DNA of 39,932 bases from a virus (lineage: Duplodnaviria; Caudoviricetes). Made by a program: the position numbers and the translations under genes. Every line of letters begins with the position of its first letter. Position 1 is the stretch's first letter. Shown piece after piece: positions 13,709 through 36,295 of the stretch. Location of the stretch: positions 1 to 39,932 of IMG/VR virus record IMGVR_UViG_3300031716_000024. One strand, given 5' to 3'. Below the pieces are notes generated by a model that had not been told where the DNA came from, ran no database searches, and worked only from the letters and a program-made list of their open reading frames with translations.

Positions 13709-13930
13709 ATGTTTGGACAACAGCCAAGAATAGAAATTATTTTTAAACATGGGGATAGAGTTAAAAGCGAATTTGGACGAAAGGGAACAGTTGTAGATTG
13801 TTTTGGTCCATCTTTTTATCCGCATCCCGTAGGATGTAAGAATTGGCGGATCAAATTTGATGATGGTGAATATGACACTTACTGTACTGAGGATTTATCA
13901 TTATTAAATGATGAGGGAAAAAATGTTTGA
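13709..13930 (+). CDS. Small hypothetical protein, SH3/KOW-like
   Basis: FKHGDRV...GTVV...IKFDDG pattern. Confidence 0.6.
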   Translation: MFGQQPRIEIIFKHGDRVKSEFGRKGTVVDCFGPSFYPHPVGCKNWRIKFDDGEYDTYCTEDLSLLNDEGKNV

Positions 13931-15296
13931 AAAAATAGCATGGATTTGTATTGTTAATTTGGCGCTTTATCTTAAAACTTTACGCTTTAAGTTTGTTTCC
14001 GATGATTTCTCGGTATGGCAAAATCCACCCGCATTTAAGAATGAATGGCATAAACGATGGCTTCAGTTCACCGGCGCATTAAAATTGCTTGAGCCTTCCG
14101 TTTATTTTTACAAAGAAAAGGGAAAATGGAAATATACGGTTATTAAAACTGAGGAATTTGAGCATTTGCTTGCGCTTCTTTTGCATATTTGTATTGGAAT
14201 AAGCATTTATTTTGCATTTGGAAAGAATCAAGTATCGTTTATTGCCGCCCTTCTTTACTCTACAAACCCTGTAAATAATCAAGGAACGATTTGGCCGGGG
14301 GGTAGGGGATACGCTCTTTCAATCTTAAGCCTATTACTTTCGATCAGTATTCCTTTCCTGTCTCCGGCCCTCCTTTATTTTTGTTCATGGTATCCGGCAG
14401 GATTCTTTGCACCTTTAAGTTTGATTGGGTCAACGCATTGGATGTTGCTTGGCTGGATACCCCTTATTTGGATATTACAACGCAAGAAATATTCGACCGC
14501 GATTAAACAGAAAGATTCAAACGAATCGTTTACGGAAGATAAAATTATTCATCCGCGCAAACTGATTTTGGCAATTAAAACATTTGGATTTTATTTGACG
14601 CTTTGTCTTATTCCGTTCCGGATCACGTTTTATCATAATTTCTTGCAGTCTTGTGCCGGATCTTTAAAGCACAAAGCCTATACATTTTGCAGATATTTTT
14701 GGATAGGGGCCATTTCAATTACCCTAATGATTGTGTGCGCAATCATGGTTCCTTGTTGGAACCCGTTGATTTGGTCCCTATTTGCTTTTTTGTTTACCAT
14801 TCTTCCGTTTTGTAATTTCAGGCGCGCAAACCAAGAAATTGCAGAACGCTTCGCCGCGCTTCCAAATGTGTTTTTAATGTACGGACTTGCGCAAGTCATT
14901 GCCCCATATAGTGTTATAGTTACCTCATTTTTAATCTTTTATATGACCAGAACTTTTTACACGCTTTCGATGTATAAGGATGAATATTTTATTACTGAAC
15001 TTGCTGTGATTGAAGATCCGCACGCGTGGTGGGCTTGGCATTGCCGTGCAATGAAACGATGGGATACTCAGAGTTACATGGAAGCATTAATTTTATGGAC
15101 AATGGCCAAGCTTATTTCCCCTAAAGAATTTAAGGTTTTAATGAATCTTGCAAGCTGTTTAAGGCTCTTAAAGAACGATAAAGAAGCAGACCATTTTCTT
15201 AAACTTGCCGAGGAGAATATAGTGGCCGGCCAGGAAAAAGAAGCCATGGAATTTATCACTGCCCACCGAAAAGGGAAATTGCCCATCTTGCTTTGA
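13923..15296 (+). CDS. TMTC-like multi-pass GT-C glycosyltransferase with C-terminal TPR
   Basis: TM1 then FVSDD...NP; LLH; AALLYSTNPVNNQGTIWPGGR; IAERF; many hydrophobic segments; TPR-like tail. Confidence 0.75.
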   Translation: MFEKIAWICIVNLALYLKTLRFKFVSDDFSVWQNPPAFKNEWHKRWLQFTGALKLLEPSVYFYKEKGKWKYTVIKTEEFEHLLALLLHICIGISIYFAFGKNQVSFIAALLYSTNPVNNQGTIWPGGRGYALSILSLLLSISIPFLSPALLYFCSWYPAGFFAPLSLIGSTHWMLLGWIPLIWILQRKKYSTAIKQKDSNESFTEDKIIHPRKLILAIKTFGFYLTLCLIPFRITFYHNFLQSCAGSLKHKAYTFCRYFWIGAISITLMIVCAIMVPCWNPLIWSLFAFLFTILPFCNFRRANQEIAERFAALPNVFLMYGLAQVIAPYSVIVTSFLIFYMTRTFYTLSMYKDEYFITELAVIEDPHAWWAWHCRAMKRWDTQSYMEALILWTMAKLISPKEFKVLMNLASCLRLLKNDKEADHFLKLAEENIVAGQEKEAMEFITAHRKGKLPILL

Positions 15297-15321
15297 TCCT
15301 ATCAGATGTTATATTTTTTGT

Positions 15322-15831
15322 ATGAACATCCGCATGCAAAAATATAAAGCAAATCGTCTTAAAGGAATGAATCAATACAATGCTGCGCGTGCTGCAGGCT
15401 ATTCTGAAAGTATGGCTAGAGTGGCATGTCGAATTGAAAAATCTGTGAAAGTCAGCATTACCGATGCTTTGGAGCGCGCTGGAATCACACCGGAATATAG
15501 AGCCGCTGAACTTGTAAAACTCACTCAAGCCAATAAAGTTATTTCCTGCAATGTAATTGCTTCTGACGGCGAAGGCATGAAAGATGCCAATTCAATGACC
15601 AAAGATTTTATTGATGTTCCGGATAATGCTGTGCGTTTGAATGCGCATAAACATATTGCTGAATTAATGGGTGATGTTAAATCTAAAGTGGAACATGAAG
15701 TTTCTGGGAAAGTTACCTTTGTTGAAATGAAAGAAATTGAACTTAACGGCAAACCTCTAAGGTATAAAATTGGACAAACTCAAGATTCCGGACTTGTTGG
15801 AAATCCCGGACAAGATATATCCCGTAATTGA
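15322..15831 (+). CDS. terS: Terminase small subunit
   Basis: AARAAGYS HTH motif; directly upstream of terL. Confidence 0.8.
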   Translation: MNIRMQKYKANRLKGMNQYNAARAAGYSESMARVACRIEKSVKVSITDALERAGITPEYRAAELVKLTQANKVISCNVIASDGEGMKDANSMTKDFIDVPDNAVRLNAHKHIAELMGDVKSKVEHEVSGKVTFVEMKEIELNGKPLRYKIGQTQDSGLVGNPGQDISRN

Positions 15832-17119
15832 GAAGCTTGATGATTACAGGTATTTTCTTTTAGAAGGTGGCCGCGGCGGTGGGAAATCTCAGTCTATTGG
15901 CAGATTCATTCTTTATTTGTGTTCGCTTTATAAGCTGCGTGTAGTTTGCGGCCGTGAAATTCAAAATAGTATTACCGAATCCGTTTATTCACTCCTGTCT
16001 GATTTAATCCGCACCAAAAATTATAACTTTGAAATTCAATCATCCAAAATTGTTCACAATAAAACGGGATCAACCATTAATTTTCGTGGATTTAGAGAAC
16101 AAGGTTCATTCAACATTCAGGGAATGGAAGGCATTGATATTGTTTGGATTGATGAAGCGCAAGCATTAACGAAACAAACCCTTGATGTGTTGATCCCCAC
16201 TATTCGTAAAGACAATGCCAAAATTTTCTTTACCATGAACCGGCATGTTGAGAATGATCCAGCCTTTTCAACATTTGTGAAACGCGATGATTGTTTACAC
16301 ATTAAAATCAATTACTTTGAAAATCCATTCTGTACGATTGCTTTAAAAAAAGAAGCTGAGGAATGTAAGAAAATAAGCGAGAAAGATTACAACCATATTT
16401 GGCTTGGGGAACCGCTCGATCAAGGCGAAGATTGTGTTTATTCGCAAAGTGAGCTTGCACACGCCAAAACAAACCATTATCCGCTTAGGGATGGATACGG
16501 TATTCGTGTGGCCGGTTTTGACATTGCTCGTTATGGGGATGATAAATGCGCAGTGGTAATCTTGCAACAAATGGGCGCGCTTCACTGGGAAGCGATTCAT
16601 GTGGATGAATGGGACAAGAAAGATTTGAATTATACGACCGGGCGAATTTTAATGACCACTAATGAACATGCTGTAAATAAAGCCATTATTGATATTGACG
16701 GATTAGGAGCAGGCCCTTTTGACACACTTACAAAGGGACGCGGGATCGAGATGTTTACAGGTTTTAGAAATCCGGTAATTGGATATGCGGATAATAAAGA
16801 GTTTGCAAATCCGCGCACAATCAACGCTTATAGATTAAAAGATTTACTCATGAAAGGGCATTTGTGTTTGCCAGATGATAAAGTGATTTCAGAATGCATG
16901 ACAATTAAATATACGTTTGATCAAAATCAACGCCGGATTTTAGTTTCAAAAGACAAGATGCGAAAAGATGGTTTTAAGAGTCCAAACCTTTTTGATGCTC
17001 TGATCATGGCCATTAGTTTGATTGGCACAGTGAAGCAGGAACAATTAGTTCAGTACAGACCAAAAGTAAGTCAATATTCACAAGATGAATCACTCTTTAA
17101 AATAGCGGGGATAAAATGA
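15770..17119 (+). CDS. terL: Terminase large subunit, PBSX-like ATPase
   Basis: GGRGGGKS, REIQNSI, WIDEA, IPTIRK, GFDIARYGDD, SPNLFDAL. Confidence 0.95.
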   Translation: MDKLKIPDLLEIPDKIYPVIEKLDDYRYFLLEGGRGGGKSQSIGRFILYLCSLYKLRVVCGREIQNSITESVYSLLSDLIRTKNYNFEIQSSKIVHNKTGSTINFRGFREQGSFNIQGMEGIDIVWIDEAQALTKQTLDVLIPTIRKDNAKIFFTMNRHVENDPAFSTFVKRDDCLHIKINYFENPFCTIALKKEAEECKKISEKDYNHIWLGEPLDQGEDCVYSQSELAHAKTNHYPLRDGYGIRVAGFDIARYGDDKCAVVILQQMGALHWEAIHVDEWDKKDLNYTTGRILMTTNEHAVNKAIIDIDGLGAGPFDTLTKGRGIEMFTGFRNPVIGYADNKEFANPRTINAYRLKDLLMKGHLCLPDDKVISECMTIKYTFDQNQRRILVSKDKMRKDGFKSPNLFDALIMAISLIGTVKQEQLVQYRPKVSQYSQDESLFKIAGIK

Positions 17120-17532
17120 GAAAATATTTATATCATAAACAGGTTGAACGGAAACGGAATTTTGTGGGGACGCTTGCTGCGATCGGCGCTGCGATTGGAG
17201 GAGCATTAACTGCTGGAAGTGCGGCGGGTGCTGCGGCGGGTGCTGTAATTGGTTCAACCGCAGGCGTTATAGCTACAGGGGCCTCAATTGCTACGGGAGT
17301 TGTAGGTGTCACTAAACTTGCGTCTGGTTCAAAAGGATCTAAAGGTGGCGCAGGAGATAATTCTCCTTTGCCATTACCTCAAACTCCCACTGTGGACGCA
17401 GCAAGCACAAAAGCGGCGGATGTTGTCTCTAAAAAAAGAGCCGGAATGGCGGCTTCTGATTCTGTTTACACTTCACCGCTTGGAATTGCTGGCCAAGCGC
17501 AAGTGGCACGTAAAACATTGACAGGCCAATAA
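17116..17532 (+). CDS. Ala/Gly-rich putative virion protein
   Basis: Hydrophobic A/G stretch; C-terminal TSPLG...KTLTGQ, as in podovirus pre-portal genes. Confidence 0.6.
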   Translation: MRKYLYHKQVERKRNFVGTLAAIGAAIGGALTAGSAAGAAAGAVIGSTAGVIATGASIATGVVGVTKLASGSKGSKGGAGDNSPLPLPQTPTVDAASTKAADVVSKKRAGMAASDSVYTSPLGIAGQAQVARKTLTGQ

Positions 17533-17975
17533 TGTTTTCGGTTGAAGAATATTCAGAGCAGTATCACGACGATATTGTTCAAATCGTTAAGAATTTCCAC
17601 GAAGAAGCAGTTCATGAATACGACCCTTCATTTGATCCTGATGTGGTGGCCAAAACAATTGCGCGGCAGAAAGACATGAACAACGCATTTCTTTTAATCG
17701 TAGATGGAAAATGCCAGGGCCTCATTGCCGGTGCAGAGATTGAACAGATATTTGGAACCACTCGAATTTATCAAGAACAGATTTGGTATGTGAATAAAGA
17801 GTTTCGAAGATACGGCATATTTCTATTGAGAACCGTGGAGCGCATCTTGCAATCTCGCGGAGTGACTATTATTCTTATGGGAGTATTAGAAAATTCAAAA
17901 ACTGGGAAGATCAAGCAATTTTACGAAATGATCGGATATAAATTATTCCAATCTTCTTACATAAAAAAAATATGA
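17532..17975 (+). CDS. GNAT-family acetyltransferase
   Basis: WYVNKEFRRYG and FYEMIGY. Confidence 0.8.
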   Translation: MFSVEEYSEQYHDDIVQIVKNFHEEAVHEYDPSFDPDVVAKTIARQKDMNNAFLLIVDGKCQGLIAGAEIEQIFGTTRIYQEQIWYVNKEFRRYGIFLLRTVERILQSRGVTIILMGVLENSKTGKIKQFYEMIGYKLFQSSYIKKI

Positions 17976-18054
17976 GTATTCCTAATCCTTTTTTTAATCC
18001 TTTTCTTTTTAAGTCTTATTTAGCTTCATACATAAAATACATAAAGGCTTTACC

Positions 18055-19722
18055 ATGCAAATTCAAGAAAAAGAAACAAAATCAGTCTCTGCCCCGCGTG
18101 TTGACCAGCTGATTGAGCAGTACCAGCAAGGTCTTGGGGGTCGTAAGAATTTCGAAAGTTATTGGCAATCCCTTCACGATTATTTTTACATCGAAGCCCA
18201 AGATGTAAATAAGACTTACGCTTCAGGTAATGAACTTGACCCCTCTTATCTTTGGGATTCCACCACATTAGAATCTGCTGACGTATTTGCTTCCGGGTTC
18301 ATGAATTATCTGACTCCTCCCACTTCAAAATGGTTCAGATTACGGCATAAAGATCCAAAACTCGCTGACAATAAAGCGGTAGGTAATTTCTTAGAAGATG
18401 TGGCCGCTGAGGTCAATTCCACGATTAACCGCTCGAATTTCTATGACCAGATGTTTCCGAGCTATAAATCAAGCGGTGTATTTGGAACTAGCCTTATTTT
18501 TGAAGAAGAAGATATTTACGATGATGCGCGGTTTTACAATATGCCGCTCAAACAAGTAGTGATTGTAGAAGATGCAAAAGGCAGGGCCAGGGAATATTAC
18601 ATCGAGTTTGAATATACCGCATTACAAGCCGCAACAAGATGGGGTGAAGATAAACTTTCCAGTGAACTCCAAGAAGAATTAAAAGGCCGAAGTTCGGACA
18701 AAAAACACAAATTTTTGCTTTATATCGGTAAACGGGAAATGCGCGAAATCCAAAAATCAGACGCAAAGAATATGCCGATTGAAGCGGTGTGGATTGATTT
18801 AAAAGGCCGAATGACGATGGAAGAAGGCGGCTACAACGAATTTCCCGCTATGGTTCACCGATTTGATAAACGGCCTACGATTGTGTGGGGATTTAGCCCG
18901 GCCATGAAAGCATTACCATTTGCACGGATTTTAAACACAATCGCAAAAACAAATCTCAGAAGTATGATGAAACACACTGACCCCGCAATTGCAGTTCCGG
19001 ACAATGCATTTATTGCGCCCTTCAACATGAATCCACGCGCAGTTAACGCGTACCGGAAAGATATGATGAGCGGAAAAGACATCTTTGCATTTGGAAATTT
19101 CGGAGATCCGCAAGTGGGCCTAAACGCAATTGAGCTTTATTCTCATAAAGTTAAAGCGCTCATGTACAACGATATTTTTCTTGCCTTTAATAACATTTCA
19201 AAAGAAATGAACAATCCCGAAGTCATGGAACGAATTAACGAAAAAATGACCATGCTCGGACCTGCCGTGGGCAGATATTTGGCTGAGGTACTAAACCCAA
19301 TAGTCCAGCGCACGATAGGCATCCTTTGGCGCAAAGGAAGGTTACCTCAGCCACCAGATGAACTGAGATCTAATCCTGAATATGAGATTGATTTTGTTGG
19401 GACGCTTGCGCAGGCACAACGTCGTTCTGAACTAAACACGCTTATTACCGGGCTTGGAATGGTTGGTCAAATGGCCCAATACTCACCGGACGTTCTTGAC
19501 AAAATTAATCCAGATAAAGTGGTGGATGAAGTTTGGAGTATTACAGGGGCTCCAATTCATACCTTGCGAGATGATTCGGAGATTTCGAAGATTCGTGAAG
19601 GCCGTGCTCAAAACGCTGCGAAACAGGCGCAAATGCAACAAATTATTGCTGGTGCATCAGCGGCTAAAGATGCTGGCGCAGCAACTGCTGGCTTTGCAAA
19701 AGCCGGACAAACGAATAAATGA
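18055..19722 (+). CDS. Portal (head-tail connector), T7 gp8/BPP-1 type
   Basis: 555 aa; WF.L, G.SPAM.ALP, EVMER..EK...LGP..GR...E.L.P. Confidence 0.92.
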   Translation: MQIQEKETKSVSAPRVDQLIEQYQQGLGGRKNFESYWQSLHDYFYIEAQDVNKTYASGNELDPSYLWDSTTLESADVFASGFMNYLTPPTSKWFRLRHKDPKLADNKAVGNFLEDVAAEVNSTINRSNFYDQMFPSYKSSGVFGTSLIFEEEDIYDDARFYNMPLKQVVIVEDAKGRAREYYIEFEYTALQAATRWGEDKLSSELQEELKGRSSDKKHKFLLYIGKREMREIQKSDAKNMPIEAVWIDLKGRMTMEEGGYNEFPAMVHRFDKRPTIVWGFSPAMKALPFARILNTIAKTNLRSMMKHTDPAIAVPDNAFIAPFNMNPRAVNAYRKDMMSGKDIFAFGNFGDPQVGLNAIELYSHKVKALMYNDIFLAFNNISKEMNNPEVMERINEKMTMLGPAVGRYLAEVLNPIVQRTIGILWRKGRLPQPPDELRSNPEYEIDFVGTLAQAQRRSELNTLITGLGMVGQMAQYSPDVLDKINPDKVVDEVWSITGAPIHTLRDDSEISKIREGRAQNAAKQAQMQQIIAGASAAKDAGAATAGFAKAGQTNK

Positions 19723-19970
19723 TTGATTTAAGACGGCTTGATCAAATTAAGAATGTTCAGGCTGTGCTCCGAACAACATTTGGATCTGATTCCGGAAAAG
19801 AAGTGATGCGGTTCCTCGAACAGATTTGCGGATGGTTTGATTTTAATGAAACAGATAAAGACGCGATATTAATTGCGCATGGAAAAAGACAAGTTTTAGC
19901 AACGCTTAAAACCTTACTTGAATATAAACCTGAAGAAATAATGGCAATCGCCAAACAAAAGGAGCTTTAA
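19719..19970 (+). CDS. Bbp19-like small protein
   Basis: TFGSDSGKEV...GKRQV; lies between portal and scaffold. Confidence 0.65.
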   Translation: MIDLRRLDQIKNVQAVLRTTFGSDSGKEVMRFLEQICGWFDFNETDKDAILIAHGKRQVLATLKTLLEYKPEEIMAIAKQKEL

Positions 19971-19971
19971 A

Positions 19972-20847
19972 ATGTCGGATAATCCAGCACCCACAACGAC
20001 TGTGGATAATACTGCGACCCAAACGCAAGCAGCACCAGCTTCAACCCCTGCAGCTACGCCCGATTCGTTTAGTTGGAAGAATCAGTTAGCGCCTGACTTT
20101 GCAAATAGTCCAACGATGCAGAAATTCTCTGATGATAAATCAGGGTTTAACGAAGCCGTTAAAAGCCATTTGTCTCTTGAACAGCTTTTAGGGCATGAGA
20201 AAGTTCCAGTTCCAAAAGGTCCGGAAGATACCGAAGGTTGGAACCGGTTTGCAAAAGCAATGGGTGTTCCTGATAAAGCAGATGGTTACGCGCTTCCCGA
20301 TGCTCAAGTTCCGGACAACATGAAAGCGTTGCAATTTAATAAACAAGAGTTTGCTGAAATGGCGCACGCTCTTAAATTTACTCCGGGCCAAACAAAAGCT
20401 TTGTGGGACACATATACCGCAAAAGCTATGGATTCATACGGAAAAGCTTTGAAAGCACATGAAGCAAAAATGACCGATGTGGTTAATCGCTTACGTGGTG
20501 AATGGGGAGATTCCTATGATACCAATGTAGAACTTGGACAAATGGTGATTAATAAGTTTTCAGGAGATAAAGAAACTAACGATTTCGTGACTTCTGTTTT
20601 ATCTCAAGATCCACGCGGAATTAAATTCCTGAAAGCATTAGGCGATCAATTCGCTGAAAATAGATTACCTGAATTTTCAATTAAACGCTTTTCGCTGAGT
20701 CCCGATCAAGCGCAAGCTGAAATTGATGAAATTGTTAATGATCCAAATCATCCATATAACAATGATAAAGCAAGTCCGGCTGAACGCCAGAAAGCCATTG
20801 ATTATGTGAATGGTTTGTATGCAGCAAAGAACAAAGCAAGAGGATAA
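19972..20847 (+). CDS. Capsid assembly scaffolding protein
   Basis: Low-complexity N-terminus, G.P....Y, LRGEWG..YD; directly upstream of the capsid gene. Confidence 0.8.
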   Translation: MSDNPAPTTTVDNTATQTQAAPASTPAATPDSFSWKNQLAPDFANSPTMQKFSDDKSGFNEAVKSHLSLEQLLGHEKVPVPKGPEDTEGWNRFAKAMGVPDKADGYALPDAQVPDNMKALQFNKQEFAEMAHALKFTPGQTKALWDTYTAKAMDSYGKALKAHEAKMTDVVNRLRGEWGDSYDTNVELGQMVINKFSGDKETNDFVTSVLSQDPRGIKFLKALGDQFAENRLPEFSIKRFSLSPDQAQAEIDEIVNDPNHPYNNDKASPAERQKAIDYVNGLYAAKNKARG

Positions 20848-21001
20848 GCTTTCAGCCCCTTTTGATTTGTAAGAAGTAGCGGACAAGCCTATACAGCCCC
20901 GCAAAAACTGAAAGCGTAAGATGCGACCCTCTATAGGAGGACAATCAATTCCCAAGCGAATTAATTGATTGTTCAACTTAAAGTAAAAAGAGAGGGCCAT
21001 C
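20838..21001 (+). promoter_or_regulatory. Structured 5' leader of the major capsid gene
   Basis: Three GG-AYAA/C-CC hairpins plus alternative helices covering the RBS. Confidence 0.55.
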
Positions 21002-21877
21002 ATGGCTGATACACAAAATACAGTATACGCCCAAGCGTATGCGCGTAACGTAATGCAACTTGCGCAGCAGAAATATTCAAAGCTGATGCCTATTTGCTAC
21101 GTGAAACCAAACGTAACGGCAAAAGTTTTCTACCAAGACCAAATCGGACAATGGTCGATGTCTGCAAAAGCAGGTCGAAATGTCCAAACCCCGAATAACG
21201 ATCCAAACTTAGCCCGTCGTATGGCAACGATGGTTGATTATCACGATGCACGTTTGCTTGACCGTGGTGATGAACTTCGTATGTTATCTGACCCGCGTTC
21301 TGCTTATACGATCGCTGCAGCTTCTTCGCTTGGCCGCCAGATTGACCAAGTGATCGCTTCTGCAATTGTCGGAACAGCAAATTACGGTGAAACTGGATCT
21401 TCAACGGTAACACTCGGAACAGATCTTATTTCCGGTATTTCCCATATCGCAGGAACGCCTTCAACGCTGACCCTTGCGCGTTTGACGCTGGCAAAACAAA
21501 TCCTGGATTTGGAAGATGTTGAAAATGAAGATCGTTTTATTGTCATCAGCCCGTATGGTTTACAGCAATTGCTGAATACCACGCAGATCACCAATGCTGA
21601 TTACAACAGTGTTAAAACACTCGTTCAAGGCCAGATTGATACCTTCCTTGGATTTAAATTCATCGTATCAAATCAGCTTTCAACTTCCGGAACCACAACC
21701 ACATGCTTTGCAATGCAGCGTTACGGTATTGCTTTGGCAATGAGTGCGGAACCAATGGTTAGAACTGATGAACGTAATGATTTGAGCTATTCATGGCAAG
21801 TTTATTATGAATTAAACATCGGCGCAGTTCGTTTGGAAGAAAAACGGGTTGTAAAACTCGATGTGAATACAGCGTAG
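21002..21877 (+). CDS. Major capsid protein
   Basis: QQKYSKL, GRQIDQVI, FLGFKFIVSNQL, GAVRLEEKRVV; position after the scaffold. Confidence 0.92.
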   Translation: MADTQNTVYAQAYARNVMQLAQQKYSKLMPICYVKPNVTAKVFYQDQIGQWSMSAKAGRNVQTPNNDPNLARRMATMVDYHDARLLDRGDELRMLSDPRSAYTIAAASSLGRQIDQVIASAIVGTANYGETGSSTVTLGTDLISGISHIAGTPSTLTLARLTLAKQILDLEDVENEDRFIVISPYGLQQLLNTTQITNADYNSVKTLVQGQIDTFLGFKFIVSNQLSTSGTTTTCFAMQRYGIALAMSAEPMVRTDERNDLSYSWQVYYELNIGAVRLEEKRVVKLDVNTA

Positions 21878-21913
21878 TCATTATTTTAATCATACTCTCT
21901 AAAGGAGAATTTT

Positions 21914-22411
21914 ATGGCAACTTCAGCAATTAATGCAGCAAACGTAACAAAATATGCGGCAGGTGGAAGCGGGGACAATTACATTCCAGATGGCTATATT
22001 AAGACAGTCGAAAAAGTCTGGCTTGATAATTACACCATCGCTTTTACTGGTACAAACGCAACAATAACGATTGCAACACTTTCCCCAAACAAGAAATTGA
22101 CGGGGATTGATATTTTAATCGTTACTTCAGTGACTCAATCAAGTGGAACAGTTGGACTTGGCTGGGCAAGTGAAGCTGATGCGGCCGCATGGGGATCAAT
22201 AATGACCGAAACAAACATTACTCACAACAACACGGTAACGACAATTTCATTACCGTTTGGAATTATTAACAATCTTAATTCAGCAAATGGCTTTATTAAG
22301 ATTGGTGGGTATCAGGCTGTTGCGGCCGGAACTCAGGTTTCAATTGCGCTTAAATTAAACAATTGGACCATGACAACGGGAACCATTAAATCCTCAGTGC
22401 GTTACACATAA
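21914..22411 (+). CDS. Putative capsid decoration/cement protein, paralog 1
   Basis: Strong RBS after the capsid gene; beta-rich; paralog of the next gene. Confidence 0.6.
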   Translation: MATSAINAANVTKYAAGGSGDNYIPDGYIKTVEKVWLDNYTIAFTGTNATITIATLSPNKKLTGIDILIVTSVTQSSGTVGLGWASEADAAAWGSIMTETNITHNNTVTTISLPFGIINNLNSANGFIKIGGYQAVAAGTQVSIALKLNNWTMTTGTIKSSVRYT

Positions 22412-22467
22412 TTTAAATATTATTTGGCGGTGGGTAACTGCCCCCATTTTCTCTAAAGGAGATTTAT

Positions 22468-22998
22468 ATGTCCGTTACATCAACAGTATCAACATCATCG
22501 GCAAATTTAACTAAATATTATGCGGGTGGATCAGGAGATAACTATATTCCTGACGGTTATATCAAGACAGTTGAAAAGATTTGGATGGATAGCTACACAA
22601 TAGCTTTCACCAATACCAATACAACTATCCAGATTGCCGAACTTCCCCCAAATAAGAAAATCGTTAGTATCAATGTTGAAATCGCTACTAGCACTTCGCA
22701 ATCCAGTGGAACGGTTAGTATTGGGTATTCAGTTGATGCTACTGATTGTTTAGCGACTACAGGAGTTTCTAATTTCTTAGCCCCAACGACTTTGACTCAC
22801 AATCTTACTCGGACAAGTATTGCACTTCCCGGGCCAGGTTTGATTCAATCCCCAACGTCCACAAGTACAACTGTGGCAGTGGGCGTGCTTGGAGGCTTTG
22901 AAGGAGTAACAGCTGGAACGCAAACAACAATAGCAATTAAGTTAAATAATTGGACGATGACAACCGGTACTATTAAAACAGTAGTTCGTTATACATAA
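22468..22998 (+). CDS. Putative capsid decoration/cement protein, paralog 2
   Basis: Shares GGSGDNYIPDGYIKTVEK and KLNNWTMTTGTIK with paralog 1. Confidence 0.6.
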   Translation: MSVTSTVSTSSANLTKYYAGGSGDNYIPDGYIKTVEKIWMDSYTIAFTNTNTTIQIAELPPNKKIVSINVEIATSTSQSSGTVSIGYSVDATDCLATTGVSNFLAPTTLTHNLTRTSIALPGPGLIQSPTSTSTTVAVGVLGGFEGVTAGTQTTIAIKLNNWTMTTGTIKTVVRYT

Positions 22999-23043: not shown

Positions 23044-23652
23044 ATGTCCACATATTCAACTCTTTCAATTCTAAATAATGCGCTTACACTATGCGGCGCA
23101 TCTCCGGTTACTTCTTTAACTGAAGATAGCGTGAATGCTCGCGCCTTAAATGCGGTATTTGAAATTGCACGAAAAGATATTCTTGCTGAATGCAAATGGA
23201 ACTTTTCAACCACTCGCTCCACTCTTTCAACTGTTGCGAGTACAACAATTGCATGGTTTTATACGGAAGAAGCATACGTTTATTCACGGCCCACGGACGC
23301 GCTAAGGATTTGGGAAGTAAGCAATCAATGTTCTATTTGGCGCGAAGAAGGCGATTATATTGTTTCCGATACTGCCGGTCTTGGAGTTAAATACACCTGG
23401 GATCAAACCGATGTTTCCAAATTCCCGTCTTATTTCGTATCCGCCTTTATTGATAAACTTTGTTCAGACATTTGTTTCACTATTTTAAATTCAGTTCCAA
23501 AAGCAGAATCTTTCTTGGCTAAATACCTGAAAGTTTCATTACCAAAAGCAAAATCTGAAAATTCGCAAATTGGAACACAACAACAGGTTAGGGATGATGA
23601 TTGGGTGGGGACTAAATTTGCAAATGGAAACCCTGCGCGTTCCTATAGTTAA
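23044..23652 (+). CDS. Tail tubular protein A / adaptor (T7 gp11-like)
   Basis: I.N.AL..G, W.FS..R..L, Y..P.D.LR, F...F...L. Confidence 0.85.
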   Translation: MSTYSTLSILNNALTLCGASPVTSLTEDSVNARALNAVFEIARKDILAECKWNFSTTRSTLSTVASTTIAWFYTEEAYVYSRPTDALRIWEVSNQCSIWREEGDYIVSDTAGLGVKYTWDQTDVSKFPSYFVSAFIDKLCSDICFTILNSVPKAESFLAKYLKVSLPKAKSENSQIGTQQQVRDDDWVGTKFANGNPARSYS

Positions 23653-23654
23653 AG

Positions 23655-26600: not shown

Positions 26601-27236
26601 TTCGCCGGTAGTCAAATTGGAAAAAGGTTAAGAGCAATTGACGCAAGTGGAACTACTTTGGGAGAAGGCCAAATTACCGGAACAAATTCAACCACAAGTA
26701 TTACGCTTAGTATTACAACCACTTTTAATTCACTTGCTTATATTGCCGGGCGCTGGGGCATTTCGGTTTCCACGATTTCAGGACTCGGTCATTTAGAAAC
26801 AAAAACAGTTGGGATTTTGGCGGACGGAAATACGGAGTCTCTTACCAGGACTGTTGCATCCGGATCGATCACTTTAGGAAGTAATTATTTCGTAATAAAT
26901 GCAGGGCTTTCTTATAACCAACTTATTTACACCCTTCCAAAAGAAGCCGGGAGTCAGCGCGGAACAAGTCAAGGAAAAGTCCAAAGATTTAATGAAGTTG
27001 CATTTAAGGTAAATCGGTCCACTCAAAATTTCTATTATGGCCCAGATGCCAGCAATCTTGATTTGGTCAGCGTGGCCATTACTCCATCTGTTTCAACTTT
27101 ATACACCGGCGTTCTCGCTCCTTTGGGATTTAGAGGCGGTTACGCACGTGGCGCGCAAGTTTATATTAAGAACTCAAATCCATTACCAATTGAACTTTTA
27201 AATGTTATTGGAACTTTAGAAACGTACGATAAATGA
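23655..27236 (+). CDS. Tail tubular protein B / nozzle (T7 gp12-like) with inserted LamG domains
   Basis: QTSFAGGE.GP.L.GR.D, PGTRYV, GYP......RLWF, AWARQ, GLGHLE, PLP.ELL. Confidence 0.88.
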   Translation: MPKVDIIQTSFAGGEFGPSLYGRSDIAQYANACAIVENFIPRSYGPAISTPGTRYVATVSDSTLRTRIIPFIFNKADSYIIEMGDMYMRFFTNRGQVVTKTGTEDLSAFSANLKAHWKCNDNTNSTTVLDATASHNGTASTLTQSLSTTAIVTNGFNLNGRYHISVADHADFTRTASSQPMTIAGWFYYDKNGADQCLFSKSGEYELSINSSDEMSFITQSGTGDVKLLLHCDGADASTTFTDSSPSSNTVTANGNAQIDTADYVFGTGSGLFDGSGDYLSIPDSADWNFGTGDFTIDCRVKFNSLSDGDCIVAQFQDGSHYWQLIYDSGNLKFQSENGSGFTHNIANAWTPSTGVWYHIALVSSSNNFMMFINGMQIGSTSLNASGIADFAGSLYIAYNGTIAGSALDGWIDEFRIIKGTAVWTSNFAPSDTPYQSAVTNSWKVNDNIPKGWNFVAVVFKGTGASSSDFKIYIDGVLKNLTFTSDPSFVKMSDTSSSFRIGTTSSAGAKNWKSKIDDIAFIHQELTAANILSLYSTSAYQITTVFTESEIFDVQFSQLNDVVYLSHPNHPPQKLIRTSSNEWSIANFAFKGGPFLDDNKDTTITITPSATTGTINITVSPTTTSLFTLSTGTLGHVNSYWKIGGLAQTNATTGLQEEGYVQITNVVNSYTATATVIKNLKATTATSTWAEGAWSAVRGYPARITLHERRLWFARTDYEPQKIWGSKTFVFDDYSLDTQADDDGLNLALASNESNEIQWLASGKSLIAGTFGGAFVINSKSTDPITPNNANASEEVGYGPASIMPKRIGNFIYYLERFAKKIREMFYFWDLDTYKAIDRTILSPHILGDGVVDMDAAKNPETIIYCVLTSGTLATLTREVDQEMTAWARQTTNGTYSSIAIIPSQTAEYDEAWVIVERWVGGNQKRYIEYFETIEIPNRQDQCLYLHCALTYDAYVSTSTSNCTISLSGTSGSVTVTSSTAYFAGSQIGKRLRAIDASGTTLGEGQITGTNSTTSITLSITTTFNSLAYIAGRWGISVSTISGLGHLETKTVGILADGNTESLTRTVASGSITLGSNYFVINAGLSYNQLIYTLPKEAGSQRGTSQGKVQRFNEVAFKVNRSTQNFYYGPDASNLDLVSVAITPSVSTLYTGVLAPLGFRGGYARGAQVYIKNSNPLPIELLNVIGTLETYDK

Positions 27237-30852: not shown

Positions 30853-30882
30853 TCAATTATACCAAAAAGGCAGGATTTTGGG

Positions 30883-32565
30883 ATGTTTTGTTTAAATTCT
30901 AAACTCACAAATGAGTTCATAAAACGCCTTAAATCAGGGGAAATTGACCCTGAAAAGATGTCTAAAATGTCATCTGAAGAAAGACGGGCTTTTTTAGGTG
31001 AATTTTTAGGTGTTAGAAATGCCAAAGAAGTAAATGCTGCCTTTGAGTCCAAACTTCTTTTAAAGGACCAGCAACAGGCCATGATTAATTGGGCCAAACA
31101 AACAGCCGGTTTAAAACCAGAGGCCAGACGCGATATTATTTCAAGAGTTGAAAAAATGACCGAGATTCTTAATCCTGAATCTGAAAAAGCATTCTTAGAA
31201 GATTTAGCAGCTCATAAATTGGGTGTGACTGTCAGTATGAATGAAGCAGCTAAAATATCAGAACTTGCAAAGGAAACTTCAGAGGCTAAAGGAAAAATAG
31301 AACCTGATTCTCCAATTCAAAGTCCAGCAAGAATGGCTTATGGTCGTGCTTTGGTCGAATTTGGGGATTATGTTAGTGAATTAAAAAACGCTGCTAAAAA
31401 ATTGGTTTTAGAAGATTTTAAAAACGCACCTCTTAAAACAACTGGAAAAGTATTATCTAATTTTGCAGGTCTTGCCAAATCATTAAAAGCAACTTTGGAT
31501 GATAGCGTTATCGGACGGCAAGGATTAAAAGTTTTATTTACTCATCCAGGTACATGGCTAAAAAATTCAGCACAAACATTTGTAGATATTGCTAATACTT
31601 TTGGTGGCAAAGAAGTAATGAAAGAAGTCCAGGCTGATGTTCTTTCTCGTCCAAATGCTTTAAATGGTCTTTACTTTAAAGAAAAATTAGCTATAGGAAT
31701 CGTAGAAGAAGCCTATCCTACCTCCGCCCCTGAAAAAATCCCATTTTTAGGAAGAATTTTTAAAGCATCTGAAACAGCTTTTACAGCTTTTCAATATAGA
31801 ACCCGTGCAGATATTTTTGATAAATATGTCGAAATTGCTCAAAAATCGGGTCAAGATGATATTCATGGAATAGGATTACTTTCAAATTCTTTAACAGGCC
31901 GTGGAACATTTGGGCAGCGTTTAGAATCACTTGCAACAGCAACCAATAATGTTTTCTTTTCTCCCAGATACTTAAAAAGTCATATTGATTTATTAACAAT
32001 GCACGGATTTGACAATATTAGTCCATTTGCAAAAAGACAAGCTGCAATTAATTTAGTAAAAGTAATTAGTGGATTAGCAGCGGTTTTGGCAATTGCAGAT
32101 CAAGTTTTCCCTGGAAGTGTTGAAAAAGATCCTCGAAGTGCTGACTTTGGGAAAATCAGAATTGGTGATACTAGATTTGATGTAACTGCCGGAATGTCAT
32201 CCCTTGCTATTTTAGCAGCACGTTTGATCAGTTCTAGCACAAAGAGCAGTGTAACTGGGCAAATCAAAAAATTAAATTCTGGAAAGTTTGGATCTCAAAC
32301 AAGTTCAGATTTAATATTTAATTTTTTTGAAAACAAACTTTCTCCAGCTGCTTCTATTGTGAAGGATATTCTTGATGGTGAAGATTTTCATCATCATAAA
32401 ATAACACCATTAGGAGAACTTAATAATCTCTTAACTCCTTTACCTATCACAACTTATGAAGAATTAAAAGATGATCCAAATTCAGCAAATGTGCTGATAG
32501 CAATGATTGCTGATGAACTTGGAATTTCAACCAATACATATTCTAAAAATAAACATAAGGGATAA
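30883..32565 (+). CDS. Putative large internal virion (ejection) protein
   Basis: Helical; FFSPR, DPRSADFGKIRIG, KLSP......D...G.DF. Confidence 0.6.
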   Translation: MFCLNSKLTNEFIKRLKSGEIDPEKMSKMSSEERRAFLGEFLGVRNAKEVNAAFESKLLLKDQQQAMINWAKQTAGLKPEARRDIISRVEKMTEILNPESEKAFLEDLAAHKLGVTVSMNEAAKISELAKETSEAKGKIEPDSPIQSPARMAYGRALVEFGDYVSELKNAAKKLVLEDFKNAPLKTTGKVLSNFAGLAKSLKATLDDSVIGRQGLKVLFTHPGTWLKNSAQTFVDIANTFGGKEVMKEVQADVLSRPNALNGLYFKEKLAIGIVEEAYPTSAPEKIPFLGRIFKASETAFTAFQYRTRADIFDKYVEIAQKSGQDDIHGIGLLSNSLTGRGTFGQRLESLATATNNVFFSPRYLKSHIDLLTMHGFDNISPFAKRQAAINLVKVISGLAAVLAIADQVFPGSVEKDPRSADFGKIRIGDTRFDVTAGMSSLAILAARLISSSTKSSVTGQIKKLNSGKFGSQTSSDLIFNFFENKLSPAASIVKDILDGEDFHHHKITPLGELNNLLTPLPITTYEELKDDPNSANVLIAMIADELGISTNTYSKNKHKG

Positions 32566-32567
32566 AA

Positions 32568-32744
32568 ATGAAAACATTATTTTTTACATTAATTTTAATA
32601 TTAACAGCAGGATCTTTTTGCTTTGCGGCTCCAAGGGAATCTGGTCAAACAGATGCAGCTCCGGTAGTCGTTTACGGGAAAGATTCAAATGGGGTCTTAA
32701 GACCTATTTTAACAGACACTTCAGGAGTGGTCCAAGGGGGATAA
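32568..32744 (+). CDS. Secreted 58-aa protein, paralog of the next gene's N-terminus (not in ORF track)
   Basis: MKTLFFTLILILTAGSFCFA|APRESGQTDAAPVVVYGKDSNG... Confidence 0.8.
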   Translation: MKTLFFTLILILTAGSFCFAAPRESGQTDAAPVVVYGKDSNGVLRPILTDTSGVVQGG

Positions 32745-32745
32745 T

Positions 32746-33735
32746 ATGTATAGAAAATATATTTTATTATTAATTGTTTTAAATTTAATCTTTTTACCAC
32801 TTGCATATTCTGCACCGCGTGAAGCAGGGAACACGGATGCAATGCCAATTGTTTTATACGGGAAAGATTCAAATGGTGCACTTCAGGCATTAAAAACCGG
32901 AACTACGGGAGGTTTGCAATTAAACGGGACCTTAACCCGGACAACAGCGCCAGCCGCAGCAGGGGATGGCGTGTTAAAAGCAGATTATGAATATGCAATG
33001 GTTGCTAATGATATTCCAGCCGCTTTACAAGGATACTTTAAAAATACAGGTTCTGCATCAGGTGGGAGCGGCCATGGAATTGGGAATTTAGGATATTCCG
33101 AAGATACAACAACGGGAGCCCAAATTCTTATTGGAAACGAAGGAAAAGTATTAGCGCATAGTTCGAGTGCAATTAATTACTTCGGACTTTACGGAGATCC
33201 CACGTGGCAAGATTCTGCAAGTGGAAATACGACCACTTTTAGCGGAGGACTGGCAGGGGGATATTTCCCAAGATATGTCTATAATTTTGATGGGGTAACT
33301 GCACGCGCTCAAGGAACTGTTTATGGGGTTTTAATTCCTGACGCTGTAGGCTCTACCACTAATTATGGGCTTTTAATTCAGCCTCAAACAGGTGGTGGAA
33401 CAACTGATATTAGCGCGGCAATTGGTGGGGCTGATACGATCACTCTTTGGGTAAATTATGATACAGATTCTACGACGGCCGCAAAAGGGATTGTTTTTGG
33501 TGCTTCAGCAGATACCAAGCTTTATCGATCAGCGGCAAGCACATTAACTACTGACGGAAAAGTTACTTCAACTGCAACATCTGACATTGGATGGGCTGTT
33601 GTAGCAGGAGCAAATACAGCTTGTAACACTACTTGTACAAGTGCGTGTGTATTTGGTTTTGACGCTGGAACCACTACGATCGTTGCGTGTACGGATGCGA
33701 CAGCTGATAAATGTATATGTGCAGGAGCATCATAA
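32746..33735 (+). CDS. Signal-peptide-bearing fibre-like protein with Cys-rich C-terminus
   Basis: MYRKYILLLIVLNLIFLPLAYS|APRE; G/T/A-rich; DTKLYRSAASTLTTDG fibre-type motif; six terminal Cys. Confidence 0.65.
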   Translation: MYRKYILLLIVLNLIFLPLAYSAPREAGNTDAMPIVLYGKDSNGALQALKTGTTGGLQLNGTLTRTTAPAAAGDGVLKADYEYAMVANDIPAALQGYFKNTGSASGGSGHGIGNLGYSEDTTTGAQILIGNEGKVLAHSSSAINYFGLYGDPTWQDSASGNTTTFSGGLAGGYFPRYVYNFDGVTARAQGTVYGVLIPDAVGSTTNYGLLIQPQTGGGTTDISAAIGGADTITLWVNYDTDSTTAAKGIVFGASADTKLYRSAASTLTTDGKVTSTATSDIGWAVVAGANTACNTTCTSACVFGFDAGTTTIVACTDATADKCICAGAS

Positions 33736-34029
33736 ATGGCATTTGAAATTCATGATTTTTTCATGTCCTTTACTCCAAGAGGAGACTCCAAAGGACTTTT
33801 CAATGTTGTTAAAGATGACATTGGAAGCTCTGGGGCCACTTCTTATTATTGTTATCAAAATGAAGCTGGGTCCTACGTCATTATGCGCGTAGTAACTTCA
33901 GGATCTTTAACGATAAAAAACTATCAATATTACGGGGTCCCCAAACGTCCCTTACAACGTGATACAGATTGGGCCAACAGAGCGAGTTTAAATTATGTGG
34001 AATATTATCAATTATTTAATCAGAGCTAG
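33736..34029 (+). CDS. Small tail-fibre-associated protein
   Basis: YY.Y....G...IMR and W.NRASL.Y pattern; lies between fibre genes. Confidence 0.55.
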   Translation: MAFEIHDFFMSFTPRGDSKGLFNVVKDDIGSSGATSYYCYQNEAGSYVIMRVVTSGSLTIKNYQYYGVPKRPLQRDTDWANRASLNYVEYYQLFNQS

Positions 34030-36295
34030 TATTTTAGTTTTCTGTTTCCAAACAGGCGCGTTAGCACTTGATAGCGTAACGAATCCGCAAACAGGAAATA
34101 TTGACTTAATTGGAATTAGTGGTACAGGCTCAAGCGTTCCCGGGTGTTCTGCTAATCAAATTTTATATACCAACGGTTCAAGCGTTCTTGCGTGTTCAAA
34201 CTCCCTTCGATACGACTATTTATCAAGCGGAACTTTAGATATTGGAAATGGTGGCGTTGGAACAACCGCTGGGATTACGATTAATCCAGGAAACAGTGTT
34301 TCTGGAACCGTTGTTTTCGCTAATGCAGCCGTATCCACTATGGCATCTATCTACGTTACCAGAGTTGGTACGGATGATTACATGAATATTGATTCTCTTG
34401 AGTATCTAACAATCTCAAATTCAAGCGTTTCAATTTCTGGTGCTTCAATAACCATTGGAAATGTTACATCTGGCTCATCCGCCGCTGACTTCGATGATGG
34501 TGGAAACTACACTGGTGGGGACGGGCAAACCCAAATCCACAAGTATAGAATCTATGCTTATAAGACATCTGGTGGAGCGACAGCTTTCTCAACGACTTAT
34601 TATGAAATTGATAACACCGAAGATGATGGAACACATATAGACGCGGCTTACACAATCAATGTTTCTTGGACGGCTGTAAGTGGCGCGACGGGATACAGAA
34701 TTATTAAATATCACGATTTTGACGGCTCTCCGACTCTAAACTTCAGTGCTTACTATGATGTTGTCGGAACGAATACATTCGCAGATGTTGGGCCAGACAC
34801 CTTGTTCACGCACGGTCAAAATGTTCTTCCAACCACAAACTATTCAAACACCATTACTCTAAATGGGCAGATCTCAAACACATACGGGAACATCACTCAT
34901 TACGGAACTTATGAGTTTAACGACCTAGTTGACTTTAACACTGGCCTAACAATCGGTGGTGAGAACTTCGTAACGATTGATAATGCTAACGCCAACTTCT
35001 TCATGGGGCAGAATAGTGGAGCAAATAACACAGTTGGAGGTTATAAATTTGGAGCTGGAATCGGAACGCTTCAACATGGCCAGGATGATTTCTATAATGT
35101 TGCGGTCGGGCCATTTGCGTTAAACCTGAATGTAAGTGGACAATATATAACTGCTGTTGGTGCGTATGCAGGATATAATTCTTTAGGAGGAAATAATTCT
35201 TTCTTCGGCTATCACGCAGGATATGTCTATGATCTTGGAGCTTATGGAACGTTCTTAGGAGCAAATGCTGGAGTAAGTGCAACGACGGCTTATGGTCTAA
35301 TCGCAATTGGAGCCGCCTCTGCTTCTGGAATTACAACGGCTCAATACTCGATTGGAATCGGGCTTGATACGATTAACGGAAACTATGGAAGTGTTATTTG
35401 TTTAGGACATGGCGCTCAAGCCACCGCAGCGAATCAATTCATTGTCGGTCGTCAAGGAATCACAGAGATTCGCACAATGTATTTTGGGGGCGGTGTTACA
35501 GACACAGATTCTTCGCACATTCAAACACTTGCTTATAGAACGACAGGTGGAAGCGGCTCAAACATTTCGGCTTGGAGCGTTGCATATTATCCTGGAATTG
35601 CCACAGGGAGTGCGACTCCAGCCACGCAGACTTTCTATGGTACTGAGGTTCTTGGAAGCGGCTCAACGGCTCAAACTGCTTATTCAAGGCTAGCAATAAG
35701 CGGAACAGAACTTGTCATTAATGATGATTCACGGGTGTTTGATACACGAATTGAAACAGATGGAAATGCAAACACCTTTTTCGTTAAAGGCTCAAATGAC
35801 CGCGTTGGAATCCTGACGAATGCTCCGACAGATGCATTCTCGATTGCAACAAAATCAGATTGGAACTCAAGCGGGCTGATTACGAAATACAATAACATCG
35901 CTACGGCTGGATTAGGATCTCCTGCGATTTATTCCGAATCAATCACGGCCACAAAGACGGGGAACTTCACAGTTCTTGCTTACACCCCACCTGCAACTGC
36001 CGGGCGCTACAGAATATCCGGTGTAATTACGACTACATCATCAACTAATACCGGAACTGTTCAGTTCACACTTGATTATAAAGATTCTCAGGGAATTACT
36101 CATACGGCAGACATTATTCCACTCGTTGACGCGGCTGGTGCAATTGCGACAACCAAGTCCGGAGCATCCCTTGAATTTCACAGTATTCCTTGGGAATTTT
36201 CAATCAATAATGCAGCAACAGTAATTAATTTAAAAGTGGTTATAACCGGAACAGTCAGCTACACAGCGGCTGGAACAATTGAACAAATAGCATAA
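33995..36295 (+). CDS. Tail fibre / receptor-binding-like protein with apparent signal peptide
   Basis: ...ILVFCFQTGALA|LDS; FN3-like VSWTAVSGATGYRI; YadA-head-like N.A.G..A repeats; DRVGILTNAP. Confidence 0.75.
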   Translation: MWNIINYLIRASILVFCFQTGALALDSVTNPQTGNIDLIGISGTGSSVPGCSANQILYTNGSSVLACSNSLRYDYLSSGTLDIGNGGVGTTAGITINPGNSVSGTVVFANAAVSTMASIYVTRVGTDDYMNIDSLEYLTISNSSVSISGASITIGNVTSGSSAADFDDGGNYTGGDGQTQIHKYRIYAYKTSGGATAFSTTYYEIDNTEDDGTHIDAAYTINVSWTAVSGATGYRIIKYHDFDGSPTLNFSAYYDVVGTNTFADVGPDTLFTHGQNVLPTTNYSNTITLNGQISNTYGNITHYGTYEFNDLVDFNTGLTIGGENFVTIDNANANFFMGQNSGANNTVGGYKFGAGIGTLQHGQDDFYNVAVGPFALNLNVSGQYITAVGAYAGYNSLGGNNSFFGYHAGYVYDLGAYGTFLGANAGVSATTAYGLIAIGAASASGITTAQYSIGIGLDTINGNYGSVICLGHGAQATAANQFIVGRQGITEIRTMYFGGGVTDTDSSHIQTLAYRTTGGSGSNISAWSVAYYPGIATGSATPATQTFYGTEVLGSGSTAQTAYSRLAISGTELVINDDSRVFDTRIETDGNANTFFVKGSNDRVGILTNAPTDAFSIATKSDWNSSGLITKYNNIATAGLGSPAIYSESITATKTGNFTVLAYTPPATAGRYRISGVITTTSSTNTGTVQFTLDYKDSQGITHTADIIPLVDAAGAIATTKSGASLEFHSIPWEFSINNAATVINLKVVITGTVSYTAAGTIEQIA

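Follow-up and report, generated by a model that had tools for sequence, protein, structure and literature searches.

Phage operons of the Gtr type are three-component systems, in which a GT-A glycosyltransferase and a GtrA or Wzx flippase are joined to a membrane glycosyltransferase of the GT-C class, and the enzymes of mycobacteriophage virion glycosylation (Che8) are reportedly soluble glycosyltransferases (GTs). Glycosylation of the Che8 capsid (Freeman et al. 2023) is cited in PMC11256854, while the known GT-Cs, according to the accounts in PMC7801869 and PMC8035078, work on the outer face of the membrane; TMTC proteins, as described in PMC7801869, have their N-terminus in the cytoplasm but their DD loop and tetratricopeptide repeats (TPRs) on the luminal side. 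In Bdellovibrio, the phage-fibre-like MAT proteins are carried behind a signal peptide and have mosaic tips, including TNF-like and beta-sandwich folds; in the same description (PMC10769870) they are chromosomal cell-surface adhesins with an N-terminal domain of their own, of ~130 amino acids (aa). These systems are compared here with the virus record IMGVR_UViG_3300031716_000024 (Caudoviricetes), whose whole stretch of 39,932 nucleotides is termed the window, and more precisely with its gene 13923 (genes are named by their first position), encoding a TMTC-like GT-C with a C-terminal TPR array, and with its genes 32568, 32746 and 33995, encoding fibre-like proteins or parts thereof with putative Sec-type signal peptides.

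The original prediction joined these genes in a single pathway, the fibres being exported, disulfide-bonded and O-glycosylated outside the cytoplasm. The reading favoured here, tentatively and with a little less than even confidence, is one of two separate traits. The first is a family-wide, TMTC-derived GT-C, predicted to face the cytoplasm, whose likely substrates are particle proteins of the phage that are rich in Ser and Thr; the second is an optional export signal, carried by some of the fibre-like proteins. In its fuller form, which is more tentative still, a TMTC-type GT-C turned inside out and trimmed of its far-side loops would coat the virion without a flippase, about half of the phages also adding Sec-exported fibres at lysis. 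An inside-out GT-C kept across a phage family, as predicted from these sequences, would be a more surprising outcome than a coupling of export and glycosylation.

Fold and charge distribution of the GT-C

The structure model of 13923 (pLDDT 92.7) matches, over residues 1-365, the structures of ALG12, Pmt4, Pmt1, AglB, ArnT, STT3 and PglB, and over residues 352-452 those of TPRs, the array being present but short. ALG12 is the best fold match (Z 15.8, root-mean-square deviation (rmsd) 4.4, 280 residues aligned), followed by Pmt4 (14.9), Pmt1 (14.8) and AglB (14.1); the GT-C matches as a whole span Z 13.6-15.8 over 263-294 residues with rmsd 4.3-5.6, which is close to the noise level of comparisons between helical proteins, and Foldseek alone returned just one weak PglB row for this fold. 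The assignment is nevertheless backed by profile comparison, since the GT-C family aligns over its full length with 19 cellular TMTC-like PMT_2/TPR proteins (hhalign, P=100%, E=4.7e-42), and the initial call of a TMTC-like GT-C holds. An in-frame ATG at 13908 would lengthen the protein by 5 residues.

The 19 cellular proteins, used below as TMTC-like controls, are the best cellular loci from a search of 401 Patescibacteria genomes, 44 of which had matches; with the phage-bearing bin excluded, full or partial matches were found in 43 of 400, some of them in tandem (L311-L329 are such Patescibacteria metagenome-assembled genomes (MAGs)). The phage protein has 260 homologs at E<=0.001, 119 others among the matches listed being 59-75% identical and many lying on contigs of 35-43 kb, and its profile matches 612 clusters at 50% identity; a GT-C of this type has no match among 50,697 GenBank phage records. 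Foldseek gave no viral match at E<=0.001, a pattern scan of viral contigs found no canonical TMTC-like gene, one distant homolog scanned against viral contigs yielded no viral locus, and a search for longer homologs returned TPR-only matches. DUF1736 (PF08409) has no Pfam match in 13923 and equally none in six TMTC-like controls scanned, nor any match over cut-off in 151 Patescibacteria genomes, 151 genomes of the phylum of G021 and 301 of that of G023. In titles and abstract openings of the literature, subscription papers being largely outside this scope, neither a phage TMTC-like GT-C, nor an inward-facing GT-C, nor a signal-peptide tail fibre of a tailed phage was found.

To describe the family, the window and one in four of the 119, making 31 close sequences, were combined with 122 distant sequences, namely the members of a list of 148 that reach 420 aa or more. 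In these 153 sequences the acidic motif of loop EL1 is kept (D27 in 99%, D28 in 97%), and the EL5 Arg before transmembrane helix 10 (TM10), R309, is found in 100%. The TMTC motifs M1 (DD) and M7 (ERxxY) are present, as DD at 27-28 and ERF at 308-310 in the window and with RY in distant homologs; M2 (SHKSYRP) and M5 (DW) were not seen in the family alignment, the Asp of M3 (RxD) stands at 0%, the Lys of M4 (KE(T/Q)xxT) at 3% vs 53% in the controls, and the EL2 Glu at 10% vs 100%. The phage GT-C thus resembles TMTC1-4 and the bacterial TMTC-like PMT_2/TPR proteins in joining a GT-C to a C-terminal TPR, in its EL1 DD, in the Arg before TM10 and in helix order (as given in PMC7801869), but it is phage-encoded, with a short TPR, deleted far-side loops and a reversed Lys/Arg bias, and, unlike TMTC1-4, lacks the M2, M4 and DW motifs.

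It is this charge bias that carries the topology prediction. By the positive-inside rule, loops rich in Lys and Arg stay cytoplasmic. On the canonically cytoplasmic (far) face, the median count of Lys plus Arg is 2 in the close sequences and 2 in the distant ones, with 2 in the window, vs 18 in the 19 TMTC-like controls, 20 in 21 PMT_2 controls (retained from 30 loci on length and hydrophobicity) and 14 in E. coli ArnT. On the catalytic face, the close and distant medians are 18 and 14, with 20 in the window, vs 10, 8 and 8 in the same controls. In other words, the canonical bias is found in 0/153 family sequences, all 153 being reversed, vs 19/19 TMTC-like and 21/21 PMT_2 proteins; along the family alignment, Lys and Arg are almost absent from the loops expected to be cytoplasmic and abundant beside the catalytic-side helices.

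Besides, profile alignment against the cellular TMTC-like proteins places the deletions of the family at far-side loops. Between matched anchors, the phage and cellular lengths in residues are 27 vs 41 (TM4-5), 42 vs 53 (TM10-11), 42 vs 48 (TM6-7) and 35 vs 39 (TM2-3), with 25 vs 38 ahead of the DD, while the span holding TM8-9 is no shorter (85 vs 81); across TM4-5, TMTC2-4 have 45-49 residues in the numbering of PMC7801869. Taken with the positive-inside rule, the reversed bias predicts that the catalytic face and the TPR of 13923 are cytoplasmic; the extracytoplasmic active site that is a trait of the GT-C superfamily would be missing from the phage family, and some hairpins may span the bilayer incompletely. 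No signal or positive flank able to translocate the DD loop, EL4 or the TPR is present in 13923, and the action on the outer face that was originally supposed runs against this charge distribution.

A GT-C facing the cytoplasm is predicted to need no flippase, and in the window neither a GtrA nor a Wzx flippase was recognised, nor, by TM count, a second protein with at least three TM helices. The same features bear on the alternative that a canonically oriented GT-C alters the host envelope, by receptor masking or serotype conversion of the Gtr kind, with the help of a host flippase. Bacterial pairs of GT2 and GT-C do so according to PMC8035078, the GT2 10275 matches the GtrB-like PHROG 841, and a recombinase-like gene was noticed by reading in some relatives. 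Such a role is nonetheless improbable given the reversed bias, the 37-69% identity and fixed terminase-side place of the gene, more like those of a core gene than of a variable moron, and the 0 integrase-like matches among the 45 window proteins scanned.

Sugar cluster, probable donor and candidate acceptors

A sugar cluster of ~10 kb (3446-13708; Table 1) leads into 13923, which is followed by the terminase gene; it codes for nucleoside diphosphate (NDP)-sugar enzymes, GT2 and GT4 enzymes and a radical SAM enzyme. Its upstream part (3446..9539) is common to one subclade of relatives. Among 18 near-complete genomes (the window, six found via the GT-C and 11 via capsid or adaptor genes), the radical SAM gene occurs in 17, just 5' of the GT-C, and a 10275-like GT2 in 16, directly 3' of the GT-C in five. 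The best NCBIfam matches of 10275 include lipid-phosphate sugar transferases, every one of them below cut-off; the enzyme is a soluble GT2, and its proposed nature of polyprenol-phosphate sugar synthase is kept as likely. By itself, this gene suggests a polyprenol-phosphate sugar as donor for 13923. The pairing of a lipid-phosphate-sugar-type GT2 with a GT-C is reminiscent of the three-component Gtr-type systems, from which the present arrangement differs by the lack of a recognised flippase gene, by the predicted inward-facing GT-C and by the extended sugar cluster beside the terminase.

In the mechanism proposed, 10275 would load a sugar onto polyprenol-phosphate at the inner leaflet, and the GT-C, with its DD loop and TPR predicted in the cytoplasm from charge bias and loop loss, would use this donor unflipped. 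The TPR would then pick a protein acceptor, most simply among Ser/Thr-rich decoration, nozzle or fibre proteins, and other GTs of the cluster may extend the glycan. Ser/Thr-rich virion proteins are the likely acceptors. Ser plus Thr amount to 25% (family median) in the post-capsid proteins and to 20% in the nozzle, vs 9-11% in terminase, portal and scaffold, and the two members of the post-capsid pair of the window, a pair present in 17/18 genomes, reach 23% and 31%. Exported fibres could be glycosylated before export, by analogy with Haemophilus HMW1C, a precedent for glycosylation ahead of export. As with Che8, phage-encoded glycosyltransferases are thereby proposed to coat the particle, but the enzyme considered here is a GT-C of the membrane, probably with a lipid-linked donor, and not a soluble GT.

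The same topology evidence applies if the acceptor of a cytoplasm-facing GT-C lies outside the virion, whether it be a glycan on a lipid carrier, a protein of the host or the phage DNA, which would then be hypermodified. ALG12, the best fold match, extends a lipid-linked glycan, the catalytic face is basic, and the cluster has replication genes on one side and packaging genes on the other, all of which would suit such an acceptor; however, the TPR is retained, as in protein-modifying TMTCs, and neither a base-modifying enzyme nor a DNA polymerase of the phage's own was recognised in the window by Pfam and PHROGs, which leaves this alternative unlikely.

Regarding the preferred reading of an inside-out GT-C acting on virion proteins, several points weigh against it. 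The loss of TMTC ligand residues (M4 Lys, EL2 Glu) means that donor and chemistry may differ. The 122 distant homologs were assigned to the family by sequence, the loop boundaries were set by hand and by eye from alignments and model, and all cellular controls except ArnT belong to a single phylum, Patescibacteria. The contrast is weaker in an alignment-free test confined to TM1, where the N-side is more positive in 40, equal in 43 and less positive in 62 of 145 family sequences, the corresponding numbers being 15, 3 and 0 of 18 controls. Basic residues also abound in the core of the DD loop (Lys plus Arg 0.20), so part of the excess on the catalytic face may serve substrate binding. As to the flippase, a GtrA-sized family of ~150 aa with 3-4 TM helices and no Pfam match is found in 7/18 genomes, the window not among them (L021:15995-16438, L131:8240-8683 and L251:7257-7715 are examples, once within a sugar cluster), and the lack of a flippase gene in the phage is in any case weak evidence because a single host flippase can supply several systems, as stated in PMC8035078.

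Sulfotransferase genes lie inside tail modules of some relatives, adjoining fibre genes (L247:3544-4194, L147:6237-7823 (Pfam) and L255:16038-16905 (motif only)); a kinase-like open reading frame (ORF) neighbours that of L255 (motif only) and a GT-like ORF comes next in L147. Their place beside fibre genes, seen in G021c and L147, hints at modified fibre glycans.

Signal peptides on fibre-like proteins

Signals were called with a heuristic of our own rather than SignalP, based on a basic n-region, an uncharged hydrophobic 9-mer and a small-residue cleavage site, which flagged 9/787 homologs of cytoplasmic core genes (paralogous pairs counted twice). Both 32568 and 32746 pass on n-region, hydrophobic h-region and cleavage site; their mature forms start with APRE, and the two are related by a DNA-level duplication (71% over 65 nt). 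While 32568, 32746 and 33995 have no PHROG match, signal-bearing counterparts in G008, G009 and G024 match tail-fibre or tailspike PHROGs, that of G024 having a pectate-lyase-like domain. The Sec-type signals first proposed for 32568 and 32746 are upheld, and such signals recur in relatives. That of 33995, considered the weakest from the outset, fails the strict heuristic; a weak signal is still likely because homologs in G004 and L147 carry the same NPxTGN.D start behind strong signals, and in G006 and G020 this start is signal-less. The 97-aa ORF 33736 precedes a fibre-like gene in 9/9 loci found, corresponding to 7 distinct downstream proteins, four with clear signals, the window with its weak one and two with none.

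Module A, which opens the mature forms of both 32568 and 32746, is known in 55 distinct variants, mostly directly 3' of the tail adaptor gene, nine of which (from 5 records) bear a signal and 46 none. Among six signal-less cases checked, five are preceded by an in-frame stop at most 7 codons away and the other one lacks any hydrophobic extension; these homologs are therefore not mis-started, and signals are gained or lost on homologous fibre N-termini. Small proteins of 90-137 aa directly 3' of signal-bearing fibres are often signal-bearing as well (L022:9976-10326, L030:1609-2022, L124:13847-14119 and L178:15724-16062), so that whole distal-fibre modules appear to switch together. Exported fibres would fold outside the cytoplasm and dock late, through the module that cytoplasmic versions also use; it is plausible that they join the virion at lysis, or after it. 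P22 tailspikes are added after assembly, and in the window the exported proteins are the only free fibre candidates besides the LamG inserts of the nozzle, which favours late attachment. Of the three LamG-type internal inserts of the nozzle (23655-27236), one has a free-gene homolog in G005, G007, G009 and G022c, with a signal in G005 and none in G007 and G009.

Part of the original description of the fibres stands. Ser plus Thr do make up 20-22% of 32746 and 33995, but similar or higher values (22-31%) are found in signal-less decoration-slot, adaptor and nozzle proteins. A beta-sandwich is indeed predicted, as a jelly roll at the C-terminus of 33995 (residues ~643-766, pLDDT ~85, best Z 8.8, a middling score) resembling GOLD, CBM16, PRD1 P5, BclA and C1q domains (Z 8-9, again middling); this tip is shared with nine proteins, three of which have signal-like starts by eye. 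As for the YadA-like segments, YadA has no Pfam match in window proteins. Disulfide bonding as a reason for export was set aside, since Cys content does not separate signal-bearing from signal-less fibres: a signal-less fibre of 464 aa in G006 has 33 Cys, and mature 33995 has an odd number (3). Directly 3' of this 33-Cys fibre (G006, L119:16806-19378) lies a radical SAM gene, possibly for a fibre-modifying enzyme. Viral structure matches of the fibre stalk model were ignored, pLDDT being <50 for 613/742 residues. In the atlas, no match of 32746 exceeded 0.79, and complex prediction for the tail adaptor (x2) with module A (x3) scored 0.00 and was weighed neither way. The fibre region also occurs in contigs from a second study, for which no differences are listed, and no RNA holder is listed for it.

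A genome was counted as having a signal fibre if one of its fibre-like proteins bears a signal and is 200 aa or longer. While the GT-C is present in 18/18 genomes, including 11/11 of those chosen by capsid or adaptor, a signal fibre is present in nine (G000, G001, G003, G004, G005, G008, G009, G011 and G024; 4/11 of those chosen independently of the GT-C) and absent from eight (G006, G007, G010, G012, G021c, G022c, G025 and G026), G002 being scored neither way. A GT-C screen of 35 records matched 19 and missed 16, the misses being 14 virus fragments (10-59% complete), one MAG (21-kb piece) and one distant phage of 42 kb (adaptor 26% identical). The signal-fibre label changes 4 times on the nozzle tree and 5 on the terminase tree (a quick one), at least 3 changes being forced by strong branches, and it is not clearly clustered, 53 (nozzle) and 157 (terminase) of 500 shuffles being as low. 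The GT-C, kept in eight genomes without a signal fibre, is thus independent of exported fibres, which look like an independent, repeatedly switched trait.

These counts bear directly on the coupling first proposed, in which a GT-C of canonical topology would add O-glycans to exported fibres outside the cytoplasm, ahead of their incorporation into the virion. In its favour are the nine genomes where both coexist, the outer-face action of known GT-Cs (as reported in PMC7801869 and PMC8035078) and the Ser/Thr-rich fibres, yet the eight genomes that keep the GT-C without a signal fibre, the bias reversed in 153/153 sequences and the lack of any signal or positive flank to translocate DD loop, EL4 and TPR make it very unlikely.

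A separate, signal-less anchored fibre, labelled here as T7 gp17-like, is found in 10/18 genomes (with PHROG tail matches), including 5/9 of the signal-fibre genomes, and by hidden Markov model search in none of the window, G001, G003 and G005. It raises the possibility, concerning the fibres only and compatible with any role of the GT-C, that signal-bearing proteins never enter the virion, serving instead as secreted decoys or as adhesins on the host surface; besides, bacteria do export phage-like trimeric fibres behind signal peptides, as described for the Bdellovibrio MATs in PMC10769870. Unlike MATs, the fibre genes considered here belong to the tail module of a phage and begin with phage-type N-terminal modules, and the signal is borne directly by module A, signal-less and mostly 3' of the tail adaptor gene in its 46 other variants. 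With four genomes devoid of the anchored fibre and no membrane anchor seen in the mature signal-bearing proteins, this fate is deemed unlikely, and attachment to the virion remains preferred.

Genome setting and significance

The window is a near-complete podophage genome of ~39 kb, in which terminase, portal, capsid, tail adaptor, nozzle and internal virion protein were recognised by Pfam and PHROGs (library scans of 45 proteins) and the ORFs all sit where the original prediction had placed them. The closest cultured matches of its major capsid protein are those of Pelagibacter phage HTVC010P-type podophages (43% identity), yet its GT-C is without a GenBank phage counterpart. The window ends share an imperfect repeat (1-300 and 39429-39728; 300 nt at ~90%, spacing 39,428), and identity of only ~90% suggests that the contig closes across two strain variants. 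The MAGs in which contigs or proteins of the family occur carry the labels Methanoperedens, Saccharibacteria, Clostridia, another Saccharibacteria-phylum bacterium and Parcubacteria; these labels were set aside as host assignments, the phage contigs being probably misbinned, and no host is claimed from the atlas neighbours of the window, which include Omnitrophota, Gemmatimonadota and Myxococcota clusters. A promoter scan of the window did no better than chance level.

Sec-type signals are also found on probable cell-wall lytic enzymes (window 37740-38108, L123:7346-7747 and L135:19539-19892), which suggests secreted endolysins. About ten 12-nt tandem repeats coding for SQV-x lie at 1469-1624, inside a DUF6745 gene (1046-2218), and acyl-carrier-protein-like ORFs were seen by eye in some relatives (L029:18853-19098, L148:11098-11337).

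Table 1. Features of the window, in order of position
Position	Strand	Feature	Basis
3446, 4371 (in 3446..9539)	+	Two NDP-sugar epimerase/dehydratases	Pfam, NCBIfam
5720 (in 3446..9539)	+	DegT-like aminotransferase	Pfam, NCBIfam
6330 (in 3446..9539)	+	Methyltransferase-like ORF	Label by reading; 0 library matches
6953 (in 3446..9539)	+	GT4	Pfam, NCBIfam
7933, 8694 (in 3446..9539)	+	Two GT2	Pfam, NCBIfam
9502..10290	+	Protein with P-loop-like motif, kept in subclade	Sequence; 0 library matches; homologs
10275..10871	+	GT2, soluble; likely makes the donor as a polyprenol-phosphate sugar synthase	Sub-cut-off matches, homologs
10832..12483	+	GT2 (10832) and third NDP-sugar dehydratase (11512)	Pfam, NCBIfam
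12653..13708	+	Radical SAM protein; HpnJ/PhpK-type best matches below cut-off	NCBIfam, homologs
13923..15296	+	TMTC-like GT-C (residues ~1-350) with short TPR (~352-452); predicted cytoplasm-facing	Structure model, profile alignment, charge counts
15322..21877	+	Head module: terminase, portal, scaffold, major capsid protein; HTVC010P-related podophage	Pfam, PHROGs, capsid comparison
21914..22998	+	Two paralogous signal-less Ser/Thr-rich proteins 3' of capsid gene; likely decoration, candidate GT-C acceptors	Composition, conservation
23044..27236	+	Tail adaptor (tubular A); nozzle (tubular B) bearing LamG inserts; both signal-less	Pfam, PHROGs
32568..32744	+	58-aa signal-peptide protein; mature 38 aa = module A alone	Signal heuristic, module search
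32746..33735	+	329-aa signal-peptide fibre-like protein; module A start, 6 Cys in last 37 residues	Signal heuristic
33736..34029	+	97-aa signal-less protein; possible adaptor or chaperone	Locus comparison
33995..36295	+	Fibre-like protein of 766 aa with NPxTGN.D start and jelly-roll tip; signal peptide weak	Homologs, model
36305..36571	+	88-aa lipoprotein-signal protein, 3' of fibre gene	Sequence, signal heuristic
37740..38108	+	Lytic transglycosylase, RlpA-like (DPBB_1), behind a signal peptide; probably a secreted lysin	Pfam, signal heuristic

If the predicted topology is true, these phages hold a natural GT-C family of inverted, possibly half-spanning topology, that is a clean topology switch through lost positive-inside signals, which contrasts with the accepted action of GT-C enzymes on the outer or luminal face. 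A cytoplasm-facing GT-C could moreover yield a tool for cytoplasmic protein glycosylation. As for the fibres, the signals gained and lost on one and the same module provide matched pairs for asking whether tailed virions finish outside the cytoplasm. Beyond the single genome described here, the finding would, if true, point to glycosylated virions across a large uncultured family, as large as the 612 clusters matched by the GT-C profile.

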